UHGV virus genome: UHGV-0179803
DNA length: 64,000 bases
Reading direction: 5' to 3' (one strand)
Source of the DNA: a virus
Shown: in pieces, positions 39,291 to 58,625 of the stretch
Layout of the letters: each line of letters opens with the position of its first letter
How positions within the stretch are numbered: position 1 is the stretch's first letter
Position numbers and translations under genes: made by a program
Notes under the pieces: generated by a model
Databases searched by the model: none
What the model saw: only the letters and a program-made list of their open reading frames with translations
What the model was told of the DNA's origin: nothing

Positions 39291-39664
39291 AAGTTAAAGG
39301 CACAGAACACATAGAACGCGCTGTGGAGGTTGAACTGGATGCCCGTGAAGTGGGCGAACTCATCGACAACACAGCAGAAGAAGTGCTCCTGCATTCGATT
39401 CAGTGCCGTGCAATGCAACGTTTCTATGAACGGGTTGCAGGTTTTGAAGGCTCTTTTTGTGTGCGGCAGCGGCAGGGAGATAATGGTATACTTGTGTACC
39501 AACTGTGGAAAATTGATGCTGACTGGGACTACCACAATGATGTTGGCATCGATGAAAAAATAAAAGACTTGACAACAGAGGAGGTTGTGGAGTATATTTA
39601 CCTCCGTGGTTGGGTAGAGAACGCAATATTCCAGTTAAGAATTCCAGTTGGAGAAGCCAAATGA
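39287..39664 (+). CDS. hypothetical protein
   Basis: 125 aa; ATGA overlap. Confidence 0.5.
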   Translation: MKVKGTEHIERAVEVELDAREVGELIDNTAEEVLLHSIQCRAMQRFYERVAGFEGSFCVRQRQGDNGILVYQLWKIDADWDYHNDVGIDEKIKDLTTEEVVEYIYLRGWVENAIFQLRIPVGEAK

Positions 39665-39918
39665 AAATTATTATCAAAGAAGACAAACTGATTTCTGATG
39701 AAACTTTCCGTGATTGCACTGCTGGTGCAGTCTATGAAGCGAAAATGTGTGAAAATCCGCTAATTGCACTCTGCGAACAACTCGGTATCCACCTTGACGA
39801 AGAAGATATTCGTTACGCCGAAGAAGGTCTGCAATGTCTCCTCTTCCACGACGATAAAGGAGAGGCTGTGTATTGCACTTTCAAAGACGTGGTTATTGTA
39901 AAACCTGAACATTATTGA
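39661..39918 (+). CDS. hypothetical protein
   Basis: 85 aa; ATGA overlap. Confidence 0.45.
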   Translation: MKIIIKEDKLISDETFRDCTAGAVYEAKMCENPLIALCEQLGIHLDEEDIRYAEEGLQCLLFHDDKGEAVYCTFKDVVIVKPEHY

Positions 39919-49288: not shown

Positions 49289-49611
49289 ATGAAGTATGGG
49301 AAATCTGTGTAGACGTAGCAGGAATCACGCTTATAGGTGCTCTGGTTATTGCTCTGGCGCTGGTAGGATACAAGATGGCACTTCTGCCTTTCCTGGAAGC
49401 ATTCAGCCTGTGTCATTGCTGGCGTAGAGCATATGGACCACAACCTGTAAAAGACTGGTTCACTTTGTACCGTATTGCACTATCTTACACGTTTGATCAT
49501 TCACGCTTAAACTGCATTGAAAGCTATCATGCTGATGGTTGGTGGTGGGTAGGATTATTCAGATGGGAGGTGACAGAGGTAACTCCGAAACGAATGCTTA
49601 AGAAAAATTGA
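49285..49611 (+). CDS. membrane protein
   Basis: 108 aa; hydrophobic N-terminal helix (VAGITLIGALVIALALVGY); ATGA overlap. Confidence 0.5.
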   Translation: MNEVWEICVDVAGITLIGALVIALALVGYKMALLPFLEAFSLCHCWRRAYGPQPVKDWFTLYRIALSYTFDHSRLNCIESYHADGWWWVGLFRWEVTEVTPKRMLKKN

Positions 49612-49939
49612 TTTTAGAATTATAAAAGTTTTAGATGACAAGGGGAAATCTGTAATAGATTTTCCCTTATTTATCAGATATTTGCAGATATTTGAAAATC
49701 ATTAGAAACTTAGGTAATTAGGAGCGTACGAAAATGGATTTTTTAAAAGCATAAGCAATCATTTAGCAAATTAGCCAAATAGATTTTAGCCTATTGCTAT
49801 TGTGTATGCATGTATTTGCATATGCCTTGCACATATCCCCACACACCTCTTCCCACATTCCCACACAGTTCTCGGTTGACCCGCCAATCTCCCCTCCACA
49901 ACTCTCCCAGTAATTTCCTTAAGTACTCGATCTGTTTTT

Positions 49940-50047
49940 CAAAATCGAAATCGGATTCTGAAAATCTCGACAGCTTTTCTCCTCGGTTCTCGATAGGTTT
50001 TTTATTTTCGATTTTGGATTCTGGATCTCGGTCTGGTTCTGGCTAGG
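49940..50047. repeat. direct repeats of a GG(A/T)TTCTG-type unit
   Basis: tcggattctg, cggttctcg, tggattctgg, cggtctgg, tggttctgg within about 110 bp of non-coding DNA. Confidence 0.5.
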
Positions 50048-50185
50048 CCTGCGCCTGAGGAACGAAAGCACTTTTTTATTTTTGAAAGTGGATTTTGAAT
50101 TTCTATATAGAAAAAATTTACCCCCTACCATTTTTGGTAGATAGTCACGGTACGTAATTAGCCTGCTAACTAAATTTTAGATAGT

Positions 50186-50380
50186 TTCATGAGTGATTAT
50201 CACCGTTACTATAAATTGCCGTAACTATAAATCACCGTGCGTTACTATTTTAATTTCACCATGCAACTATAAATCACGGGCCGTTATTATTTATATAGAA
50301 AACTATTACTAACCGTGCGTTATTACCTCAATTTGCTTAGGTTACTATTAATCACCGTAAGTAACTATTTTTTAAATGAT
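50186..50380. repeat. iteron array, ~9 units at ~20-bp period (candidate origin or regulator-binding array)
   Basis: Units such as GTAACTATAAATCACCGTG, GTTACTATTTTAATTTCACCATG, GCAACTATAAATCACGGG, GTTACTATTAATCACCGTAAG spaced 15-22 bp. Confidence 0.65.
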
Positions 50381-50399
50381 AATCATTCTCAAAATATAT

Positions 50400-50700
50400 T
50401 GCGTGCATCCCCGGTGATTGTCTCCCGGCCCCTGGTGCCCCGGCTTGATTATATAATAACAGATCCGGCCCCCATGTCAACAGCTTTTTTAGAAAAATAT
50501 TAGTTACAACATCCTGGCGCCACCTGGCAGGGCCATCATGACCATGATCCGGTCCGGCGCTTGCGCCCTGGTCCATCCTCCGCACATTAGTTACAGCATT
50601 CCAACGACCGATCCCCGATAGTCTGCAACCTGGCGGGGCCGCCTGGTCCACTGGACCGCCTCCCCTGGTCCGGTGGGGAGTCCGGCTTGCAATTCAAAAT
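50400..50700. other. GC-rich island of palindromes rich in CCTGG
   Basis: GGTCCACTGGACC palindrome, CTCCCC...GGGGAG and GGCGCTTGCGCC inverted repeats, about seven CCTGG sites in about 250 bp, inside otherwise AT-rich non-coding DNA. Confidence 0.5.
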
Positions 50701-50732
50701 GTGATCTGTGTCAACCTTTCACCATGTAGCTA

Positions 50733-50760
50733 TTGATCAGGTTACGGCCTAGTGTATTCT
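50733..50760 (+). promoter_or_regulatory. sigma70-like promoter of first micro-gene
   Basis: TTGATC-16 nt-TATTCT. Confidence 0.45.
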
Positions 50761-50828
50761 ATAGGTGAAGGGAAACAAAGGGGAAACGGAAAGCAAAACA
50801 CCAGGCCGCAAGGCAGGAGGAAAATAAA

Positions 50829-51005
50829 ATGAAAGGCATGGTTAACAACAACAACGTAAAAGAGAGGGAAATTATTGTTAATGGTCGTGAGATTGACAAT
50901 AAACGCCGGAAAGCTATGCGTGATGCCCTGGTCAACTGGTTGGATTATGAAAAAATGATGGTAATGGCAGCGGGTGCCGCAGCTGGTGAATTTAACCACA
51001 GATAA
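50829..51005 (+). CDS. micro-gene product (58 aa)
   Basis: ATG after AGGAGGAAAATAAA; below ORF-track cutoff. Confidence 0.4.
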   Translation: MKGMVNNNNVKEREIIVNGREIDNKRRKAMRDALVNWLDYEKMMVMAAGAAAGEFNHR

Positions 51006-51021
51006 CCACAGGGGGGCAAAG

Positions 51022-51216
51022 GTGTTAGCTTATAATCTTCCAGGCCGTCGCCGTACGGTTGCCGACCAGGTAACGGCAAAGGCAGACGTAACAATCAACA
51101 ACGGGCAGGGCCTTTACAAGTTTAAACGGGGGAACAGCTATACGATCCAGTTTCTTAACCGTTGTGCTTTAACACCTGGTCAGATCAACCATTGGTTTAA
51201 AGCTAAAAAATTTTAA
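51022..51216 (+). CDS. micro-gene product (start uncertain)
   Basis: GTG after AGGGGGG; ORF-track frame 50974..51216. Confidence 0.35.
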   Translation: MLAYNLPGRRRTVADQVTAKADVTINNGQGLYKFKRGNSYTIQFLNRCALTPGQINHWFKAKKF

Positions 51217-58286: not shown

Positions 58287-58296
58287 GAGATTCTAA

Positions 58297-58321
58297 GGGC
58301 CGCAAATAAGCGGCCTTTTTT
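58297..58321 (+). terminator. intrinsic terminator (copy 1 of an exactly repeated hairpin)
   Basis: GGCCGC-AAATAA-GCGGCC followed by TTTTTTAT. Confidence 0.7.
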
Positions 58322-58547
58322 ATGGCCCCGCCTCCTGTGTTTAAAATCCTTCCTGTAAGCCCCGCCATTGAGATTTACCCGCAAGATAAGCAAGTGTAAA
58401 GCCCCACCATTCCAGGCCGTTGCAGGCCCTGCCAGGTGCCTAAAAATCGATTTATACGCTTCCACTATTGCCAACCTTCAAAGCGATCCAGACTTAAAAG
58501 TGTTGCCCCTGCAAAATGAGAATAGTTATCATCTTATAAATTTTTCT

Positions 58548-58575
58548 TGCAATGTGGTCTGTTGTGTGTATACTT
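58548..58575 (+). promoter_or_regulatory. sigma70-like promoter
   Basis: TTGCAA-16 nt-TATACT; followed by GGGGAATACCTCCCC hairpin in the leader. Confidence 0.5.
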
Positions 58576-58625
58576 ATTCTTGAAAGGGGAATACCTCCCC
58601 CACCAACAACAAAGGAGTTAAAATT

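Follow-up and report, generated by a model that had tools for sequence, protein, structure and literature searches.

What is a short GC-rich island doing within AT-rich DNA that carries no credible genes? The question is raised by positions 50400 to 50700 of the virus genome UHGV-0179803, a stretch of which, 64,000 nucleotides (nt) in length and here called the window, was analysed. An earlier note on this DNA had pointed to palindromes and clustered CCTGG sites in the island and had proposed that it might encode a structured RNA or serve as a binding platform. Comparison with related phages indicates that the island is two objects: its left edge is a conserved cis element, described neither in Rfam nor in the literature searched, and the remainder, which holds the flagged palindromes and the CCTGG cluster, is repeat filler that evolves fast and holds little promise as an RNA gene. 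The left element would supply the promoter and the leader of a replication origin activated by transcription, in which Fur-type operators lie between the promoter and an AT-rich block. We put the probability of this reading at about 0.4; otherwise, the element may be some other essential cis-acting sequence. The phages in question, those related to rV5, are candidates for broad-host-range therapy, and their origin was not located in the rV5 paper, in which skew analysis could not define it (PMC3606486).

The window represents a new rV5-like myovirus, whose core genes are about 67% identical in DNA sequence to those of Vequintavirus. The island lies inside a 1.2-kb gap without credible genes (49611-50829), and this gap sits in a long plus-strand block of early genes with strong sigma-70 promoters. 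An equivalent gap is present in rV5 (L001), in Phapecoctavirus (L002), Certrevirus (L003, L004, L011), Mydovirus (L070), Seunavirus (L072, L089) and Justusliebigvirus (L073), and in several metagenomic relatives. A megablast search of the island region against phage records gave no match, and relatives of the region were reached only by blastn, at about 75% identity; when viral contigs were searched with the pattern CAACCTGGCGGGGCC, mostly chance matches in unrelated contigs were returned. The island had been taken to be non-coding, and this holds; the only long open reading frames (ORFs) across it, of 62 amino acids (aa) on the plus strand and 99 aa on the minus strand, are not conserved.

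Conservation across Vequintavirinae and Stephanstirmvirinae is found in the left 80 bp or so (50392-50480) together with a Fur-type box at 50377-50391. An alignment of 29 distinct sequences from about seven genera (a reduced set was also used) gives the order of this core as one to four palindromes of the type AATGAGAATCATTCTCATT, about 20 nt, a 12-mer, 25-30 nt, and then the -10 and -35 elements of a minus-strand promoter. In the window, the element and the DNA to its left consist of the following.

50453..50480, minus strand: strong sigma-70 promoter TTGACA-16-TATTAT (TGtTATTAT), scoring 11/12, with a TG extension.
50413..50424, no strand assigned: invariant 12-mer GGTGATTGTCTC (GGTGNTTGTCTC in the family), from the alignment.
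50392..50446, minus strand: 5' leader predicted for the minus-strand transcript; its GC is 0.60, it is rich in purines and poor in U, and it has four G-runs.
50377..50391, no strand assigned: predicted Fur-type operator TGATAATCATTCTCA, a 7-1-7 palindrome in one copy, from its match to the consensus.
50150..50376, no strand assigned: about seven iteron-like repeats (AATCACCGTnnGTTACTAT), lineage-specific, read from the sequence.
50059..50190, no strand assigned: AT-rich block, GC 0.33, ending in the palindrome TTAGCCTGCTAA and homologous to rV5/Bas54 DNA.

The 12-mer, in the form GGTGNTTGTCTC, is invariant in the 29 distinct sequences, its flanks are variable, and it occurs once in the window. 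The promoter to its right is the only minus-strand site that scores at least 11/12 between 44001 and 64000, the other eight such sites being plus-strand early promoters, and an A-tract resembling an UP element (50484-50498) lies upstream of its -35. In nearly all lineages, the -10 of this promoter ends 25-30 nt to the right of the 12-mer, and the spacer sequences differ; the score ranges from 6.5 to 11 of 12 across lineages, often with a TG extension. Both rV5 and Bas54 have two copies of the core in tandem, each with its own leftward promoter, and by eye there are apparently three such promoters in P7_Pc (Certrevirus) and two in CR8. Two other explanations of the 12-mer were tried and rejected. 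A peptide starting at the GTG inside it is not compatible with the invariance of the third-codon positions in the motif, the loss of the frame in L002 and P7, and the lack of a ribosome-binding site. Mimicry of ToxI, as by the pseudo-ToxI of phiTE, was prompted by a comparison of GGTGATTTGCTACC with GGTGATTGTCTC and was dropped: even when up to 9 substitutions were allowed, nothing similar to the 36-nt ToxI repeat was found in the window or at 22 related loci, among them L011, taken to be phiTE.

The palindrome TGATAATCATTCTCA agrees with the Fur core consensus TGATAATNATTATCA at 14/15 positions and, by manual count, with the 19-bp Fur consensus GATAATGATAATCATTATC (PMC4506495) at 15/19. A search of the window with TGATAATNATTATCA, allowing up to two mismatches, gave four matches versus 0.45 expected, and three of the four lie in non-coding hubs, that is, in the present gap or in a distal region treated below. 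(The sequence TGAAAATTATTATCA at 39662-39676, one mismatch from the core consensus, is outside the hubs.) Relatives have one to four Fur-type boxes at the equivalent place, and some of these are closer to the consensus, such as GATAATGATAATCGTTCTC in rV5 (17/19 by eye) and GATGATAATCATTATT in L069. The assignment to Fur is a prediction made by similarity to the consensus. In their match to the core and to the 19-mer, in the arrays of two to four adjacent boxes seen in relatives, as at promoters under strong Fur control, and in their position within the spacer of a promoter-like site, the boxes are like those of enterobacterial Fur-repressed promoters. Unlike typical Fur boxes, they occur in a virulent phage with no iron gene nearby, the box is downstream of a strong opposing promoter, and the common variant in the phages is TGAGAAT/ATTCTCA. 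The literature searched contained no link of Fur boxes with the non-coding DNA of rV5-like phages or of T5. The proposal of a binding platform thus survives in altered form: a conserved match to a Fur operator, a sigma-70 promoter and the 12-mer give it substance, none of which had been named, whereas the palindromes on which it had been built are not conserved.

The minus-strand promoter points into AT-rich DNA. Its predicted transcript would start near 50446, as judged from the position of the promoter, and the GC content falls from 0.60 in the leader to 0.31-0.33 over the 330 bp beyond the Fur-type box. Over the 29 lineages, the leader (46 nt) contains on average 18 G, 13 C, 11 A and 3.8 U; it is purine-rich and U-poor in all 29, with a mean G-C skew of only 0.15. 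The AT-rich block (about 50059-50190) lies downstream of this promoter, and its equivalent in Bas54 is the annotated ORF bas54_0101. The iteron-like array, flanked by the conserved AT-rich block on one side and by the Fur-type box on the other, has related repeats in the distal hub. Both the close relative L091 and rV5 lack the array; consequently, it is dispensable for the core element.

Published transposon data on Bas54 (MaxBurger, MZ501093) bear on this element. In a HIDEN-SEQ study, in which transposon insertions were mapped, none of the 11 TA sites of bas54_0101 was hit ('Essential'), bas54_0102 was hit at 5 of 15 sites ('Strong fitness defect'), and insertions in bas54_0099 and in bas54_0103 to bas54_0109 were tolerated; an insertion-free intergenic region of about 2 kb was also noted, and bas54_0101 and bas54_0102 were treated as genes (bioRxiv 10.1101/2025.11.20.689424). 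When the two ORFs are placed on the sequence (L094 821-1258, which is MZ501093 81627-82064), bas54_0101 is the AT-rich block, and bas54_0102 begins at an ATG in the first Fur-type box and spans both copies of the core and both antisense promoters. Their start codons are either non-ATG or within a box, and they have no protein homologues outside the genus. As conserved proteins they were rejected, since tblastn gave only short pieces lying over conserved DNA motifs, and bas54_0102, the counterpart of rV5 ORF198, was rejected as a gene because this frame, in the window, runs for 13 codons before it meets a stop inside the 12-mer. Taken together, these results indicate that bas54_0101 and bas54_0102 are probably not genes. 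Because neither ORF is conserved as a protein, the essential entity is most likely the non-coding element itself. The conserved sequence is thereby tied to published data on insertion intolerance, and two 'essential genes of unknown function' of Bas54 would instead be a cis-acting element.

In the model that we favour, the strong host-type promoter on the minus strand would fire leftwards, against the flow of early transcription. The resulting RNA, starting near 50446, would begin with a leader rich in purines and poor in U, in which the invariant motif lies (GAGACAANCACC on the minus strand), and it would then cross the Fur-type operator or operators and enter the AT-rich block. There, the G/purine-rich RNA could remain hybridised to its C-rich template and either open the AT-rich DNA or prime synthesis within it, and host Fur, or a protein of the same specificity, bound between the promoter and the AT-rich block, would gate or organise the firing. 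Transcription, binding of Fur, formation of an R-loop or primer, and origin function are all predictions made from the sequence. No transcriptome of an rV5-like phage came up in the literature consulted, though no search aimed at one was made. According to the rV5 paper, this phage family has a helicase of the T7 gp4 kind and a polymerase of the PolA type (PMC3606486), which agrees with such a model.

Several known origins have a similar plan. In the primary origin of T7, the tandem promoters phi1.1A and phi1.1B precede an AT-rich region, and here, one or more strong promoters lead into an AT-rich block. Further precedents are oriF and oriG of T4 and the promoter of the RNA II primer of ColE1. 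The promoters are in tandem in rV5, Bas54 and the Certrevirus relatives, and the leader is rich in purines and G, which might suit a persistent RNA-DNA hybrid. Unlike the T7 primary origin, the promoters are of the type used by the host sigma-70 polymerase and not by a phage polymerase, Fur-type operators stand between promoter and AT-rich block, and the leader carries an invariant 12-mer. Furthermore, the T7 primary origin is dispensable, whereas the rV5-like element apparently is not, being intolerant of insertions in Bas54. If the favoured model holds, a promoter-driven origin would be combined with the operator of a host repressor. Exact bases can be named for mutation, in the 12-mer, in the antisense -10 and in the Fur-type box. 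The analysis also points to a link of the element with host iron regulation, and to one with the repeat region of T5, which has long lacked an explanation; both had gone unnoticed. A further step, that arrays of predicted Fur operators, placed between a strong primer-type promoter and an AT-rich unwinding block in an essential element of rV5-like (and partly of T5-like) phages, couple the start of replication, or another early event in cis, to host iron, is in our view unlikely; were it true, the 'essential hypothetical genes' bas54_0101 and bas54_0102 would be this element and not genes.

A number of points count against an origin at this place. Both the start of a transcript and the initiation of replication at the locus are predictions, and the lack of insertions in Bas54 could just as well reflect a packaging signal, a regulatory switch that is essential, or an essential small RNA. 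The four G-runs of the leader are confined to the window and rV5 clades, and a G-quadruplex is possible only there. A phage protein could bind the same Fur-type palindromes. In T5-like phages, the homologous vocabulary lies in the terminal repeat, whereas the origins of T5 have been mapped near the centre of the genome (Davison, bioRxiv 10.1101/866236). Finally, there is a second non-coding region that is larger, apparently free of insertions and equipped with DnaA boxes, and that is an equally good or better candidate for an origin.

61830-64000: distal hub, a non-coding region that exceeds 2.2 kb and closes the plus-strand early block.

The distal hub contains three perfect DnaA boxes within 40 bp (63440-63479; the whole window has 7 versus 0.8 expected), Fur-like boxes at 62225 and 63796, iterons of the type CACTGTGnGnAACTA at about 63690-63735 and many AT-rich repeats. 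Judged by position, it seems to correspond to the insertion-free region of about 2 kb in Bas54.

Of the other explanations, the one that survives best is that the element is a purely transcriptional switch with no role in replication, a reading that we consider doubtful. It would be formed by two face-to-face promoters that overlap by about 40 nt, the minus-strand one already described and a putative plus-strand one; the latter and the promoter that follows the island are listed here.

50371..50400, plus strand: weak, putative promoter-like site TTTAAA-18-TATATT, whose spacer holds the Fur-type box.
50733..50760, plus strand: probable promoter TTGATC-16-TATTCT for the next early genes, found by eye, 8/12, below the scan threshold.

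Such a switch would act by transcriptional interference or through a short antisense RNA, and it would either insulate the upstream from the downstream early units or make the downstream early genes responsive to iron. Both promoter-like sites hold their positions around the 12-mer; in many lineages, the counterpart of the plus-strand site, TTGAAT-18-CAGAAT, ends 12-13 nt to the left of it. The Fur-type box is in the spacer of the weak plus-strand site (9/12), a classical position for a repressor; relative to the strong minus-strand promoter, its position is about +55 to +69. Another Fur-like box stands just upstream of a plus-strand early promoter elsewhere (58517-58574). In addition, insertions near the element are deleterious in Bas54. 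However, the downstream genes probably have a promoter of their own, retained in L079, L090 and L091 as the right border of the island, and they are non-essential in Bas54 (bas54_0103 to bas54_0109); thus, a phage that lost such a local switch should survive. The plus-strand promoter is also weak and, by score, absent in several lineages, and the part of Bas54 that took no insertions at all, the AT-rich block, is no promoter.

A less likely explanation, and one that we regard as improbable, is that the locus is a signal for packaging or entry, built from sites for host proteins (Fur-type boxes, DnaA boxes) and repeats: either a pac-type site at which a headful terminase would act or an equivalent of the 'injection stop' of T5. 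It is suggested by the comparison with T5. Repeat region 3 in the left terminal repeat of T5, a candidate for the signal at which the first step of DNA transfer stops (Davison, bioRxiv 10.1101/866236, where Fur is unmentioned), uses the same vocabulary as the hub and, by eye, much of the same order. Items common to both are a CA/CT-rich tract, short 'cggatt' direct repeats, Fur-type palindromes, a TTAGCnnGCTAA palindrome and CCCC(G)GTGATT after the box, as well as DnaA boxes, which in the window are located in the distal hub. In the T5-like repeat region 3, there are six Fur-type palindromes, DnaA boxes, the CA/CT tract, the TTAGCnnGCTAA palindrome and the motif CCCCGTGATTAT after a box, and a 47-nt BLAST match of about 85% links Certrevirus and T5-like phages. 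In the T5-like Salmonella phage Spc35 (L068), this region (between 1960 and 3010) has the six Fur-type palindromes at 2450-2620 and 2937-2960, the DnaA boxes, the CA/CT tract, the palindrome TTAGCAGGCTAA and, after the last box, GCGCCCCGTGATTATTAG. The tract of the window (ccccacacacctcttcccacattcccacaca...) is at 49830-49915, and tracts similar in kind are found in rV5 (L001, about 2750-2800) and in the T5-like repeat region (L068, about 2020-2190).

Also in favour of a packaging signal, phiTE, a relative, is terminally redundant and circularly permuted (PMC3475682), and because it is permuted it needs a pac site; the element, moreover, appears to be essential in cis in Bas54. Several observations do not agree with it. 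A long distance separates the hub from the terminase genes; the ends of T5 are fixed and its DNA is injected in two steps, whereas in permuted genomes such as that of phiTE, which lack a fixed entry point, a T5-like stop signal would have no defined position; and the conserved strong promoter and purine-rich leader are left unexplained. At the T5-like locus itself, a strong antisense promoter and GC-rich modules were not found, and the function of the T5 region is itself unproven. GenBank records that start near the hub, of which there are a few, were considered as evidence of genome ends and judged unreliable.

The right-hand part of the island, about 220 bp (50481-50700), is of another nature. 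It holds nearly all of the palindromes and CCTGG sites that had drawn attention to the locus, in two modules, each of which opens with ATTAGTTACA(A/G)CAT and contains ACCTGGC(A/G)GGGCC.

50499..50512, plus strand: repeat ATTAGTTACAACAT, copy 1, the start of module C1, present in five of six close relatives.
50513..50585, plus strand: GC-rich module C1, with ACCTGGCAGGGCC (50522-50534), the hairpin ATCAT-GACC-ATGAT (50535-50548) and GGCGCTTGCGCC (50556-50567).
50586..50599, plus strand: repeat ATTAGTTACAGCAT, copy 2, the start of module C2.
50600..50697, plus strand: GC-rich module C2, with ACCTGGCGGGGCC (50628-50640), GGTCCACTGGACC (50645-50657) and CTCCCC-N9-GGGGAG (50660-50680).

As a description, the earlier note was accurate. 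The GC content of 50400-50700 is 0.578 versus 0.309 for 50050-50399 and 0.438 for the whole window, which makes it the most GC-rich 300-bp stretch of the 64 kb. The palindromes GGTCCACTGGACC (at 50645) and CTCCCC-N9-GGGGAG (at 50660) are present, as are GGCGCTTGCGCC (at 50556) and the repeat ATTAGTTACA(A/G)CAT (at 50499 and 50586); within the window, each of them is unique to this region, and the related palindrome reported for the distal hub, GGACCTGCGGTCC, occurs once, at about 63897. Thus, the composition and the clustering of motifs are beyond chance, and yet the single palindromes are not conserved even in the closest relatives. Six relatives were recovered in which a flanking protein is 92-98% identical or the core is nearly identical (L006, L079, L085, L090, L091, L092), and five of them were aligned with the window. 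In this six-way alignment, the core is almost unchanged up to CGCCACCTGGCGGGGCC, and from there to the next plus-strand promoter there is a mosaic of insertions and deletions, with five architectures in six genomes. GGTCCACTGGACC and CTCCCC-N9-GGGGAG occur in the window only and GGCGCTTGCGCC in three of the six genomes (the window and close relatives). Judged by conservation in related genomes, one of the refuting conditions that the earlier note had set, the flagged palindromes fail. Module C1 is truncated or missing in L079, L090 and L085, and L085 has the variant TTGGTTACAACAT at the copy-1 repeat; module C2 is replaced or deleted in L079, L085, L090 and L091. This part of the island is a lineage-specific, fast-changing mosaic of GC-rich repeat modules.

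Other genera have, at the equivalent position, a 'module B' (CTACCGGCGATCCACC...ACCTGGCCCC, also given as CTACCGGCGATCCACC...GCCCCGCCTTTTCGCCGTGGGGTGGCG), which shows partial similarity to module C2 of the window and has short motifs in common with it; the copy-1 repeat ATTAGTTACAACAT is the counterpart of CTTTACA-N4-CTTTACA in these genera. After module B they have one more leftward promoter, with a spacer that is GC-rich and often palindromic. In the window, a second minus-strand promoter was sought at 50713-50718 (TTGACA) and rejected, as it has no acceptable -10. The modules of the window at 50481-50700 have no recognisable promoter, stable fold or conserved palindrome, and they are probably at most a spacer or insulator. 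A parallel is offered by the mobile PeSL-type cassettes of T4-type phages: in both, short, repeated, GC-rich units of the stem-loop/promoter kind in the early region appear to mediate recombination and modular shuffling. Unlike the cassettes, the present units are gathered in one non-coding hub and not distributed between many genes, they are promoterless in the window, and the breakpoints between modules are at repeats of the CCTGGCGGGGCC type. In L090, whose flanking protein is 98% identical, there are two copies of the core (1860-2160), one of the rV5 type without a box and one of the type found in the window, and it follows that the hub recombines between lineages. A minus-strand gene of 89-94 aa lies beside module B in many other genera (L002 1782-2048, L071 1496-1777, L073 1360-1626); its product has the motif LGWQGGTVHQVA..TGL and the look of a helix-turn-helix protein, and a homologue is absent from the window and from rV5.

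Does the island nevertheless encode a structured RNA? For the island as a whole, folding, Rfam and terminator tests were all unsupportive, and covariation was limited to one small hairpin (50535-50548). The sequence 50481-50700 folds no better than its dinucleotide shuffles (z = +0.91 on the plus strand and +1.33 on the minus strand). Searches against Rfam (the whole window at the gathering threshold, and 49600-51100 at E<=10) returned only three tRNAs elsewhere and chance matches. These tRNAs, Met-CAT, Thr-TGT and Arg-CCT, form a cluster on the minus strand at 14557-14800. No terminator-like site was found in or beside the island, and RNAalifold, applied to 14 module-B sequences, gave -8.7 kcal/mol with zero compensatory pairs. 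By manual inspection, a hairpin CCCCGC/GUGGGG in module B changes from C-G to A-U in 3 sequences and to G.U in 12, and the hairpin of module C1 (50535-50548) passes from U-A to U.G to C-G across the window, L006 and L085. Small local hairpins may therefore form, and there is no case for a structured RNA gene.

A more specific version of this idea is that one or more structured non-coding RNA genes lie on the plus strand, for example a Fur-regulated small RNA that starts at about 50407, has GGUGAUUGUCUC as its seed and continues into structured modules. The Fur-type box does overlap a plus-strand promoter-like site, the 12-mer would be at about +6 to +17 of such an RNA, and in both hairpins (50535-50548 and CCCCGC/GUGGGG of module B) the G.U-compatible changes would favour the plus strand. 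However, besides the lack of excess folding stability, terminator, Rfam match or RNAalifold compensatory pair, near-identical relatives have acquired, dropped or rewritten the modules, and the strong opposing promoter would interfere with the transcript. A universal stem around the 12-mer was also rejected: it is strong in Certrevirus alone (z about -3), and the clade of the window lacks it. A plus-strand small RNA is consequently very unlikely.

There remains the CCTGG cluster. The count of about seven sites was exact (50431, 50513, 50523, 50567, 50629, 50642, 50664), with no CCAGG, and the density of CCWGG in the island tops that of all other 300-bp stretches, the runner-up outside it having 5. 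In the window as a whole, CCTGG is not enriched (100 observed versus 113 expected under a Markov model), and the cluster is therefore local. Several of the sites are explained by the repeated motif ACCTGGCGGGGCC, which, with up to two mismatches, has 7 matches in the window versus 0.6 expected. That Dcm/EcoRII-type sites have a role of their own here, as an epigenetic mark or a decoy, is an idea that draws on the density of sites and on their orientation (22 CCTGG and 0 CCAGG on the plus strand over six genomes), but it is scarcely credible given that near-identical relatives (window, L006, L079, L085, L090, L091) have anywhere from 1 to 7 sites, that CCWGG is neither enriched nor avoided genome-wide, that several sites come with ACCTGGCGGGGCC, and that no motif of a C5-methyltransferase (phage Dcm type) was found in the 64-kb window.

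Two minor observations may be added. Over the locus, sixteen MG0656xx records (about 128-141 kb) that bear the label 'Campylobacter phage' match coliphage rV5 at about 92% identity, and their host labels look doubtful. In the early block of the window, a further non-coding stretch (58287-58625) has a terminator followed by a GC-rich part in which ACCTGGCAGGGCC stands inverted (58425-58437, minus strand), and a Fur-like box at 58517-58531 is immediately upstream of a plus-strand promoter at 58547-58574.

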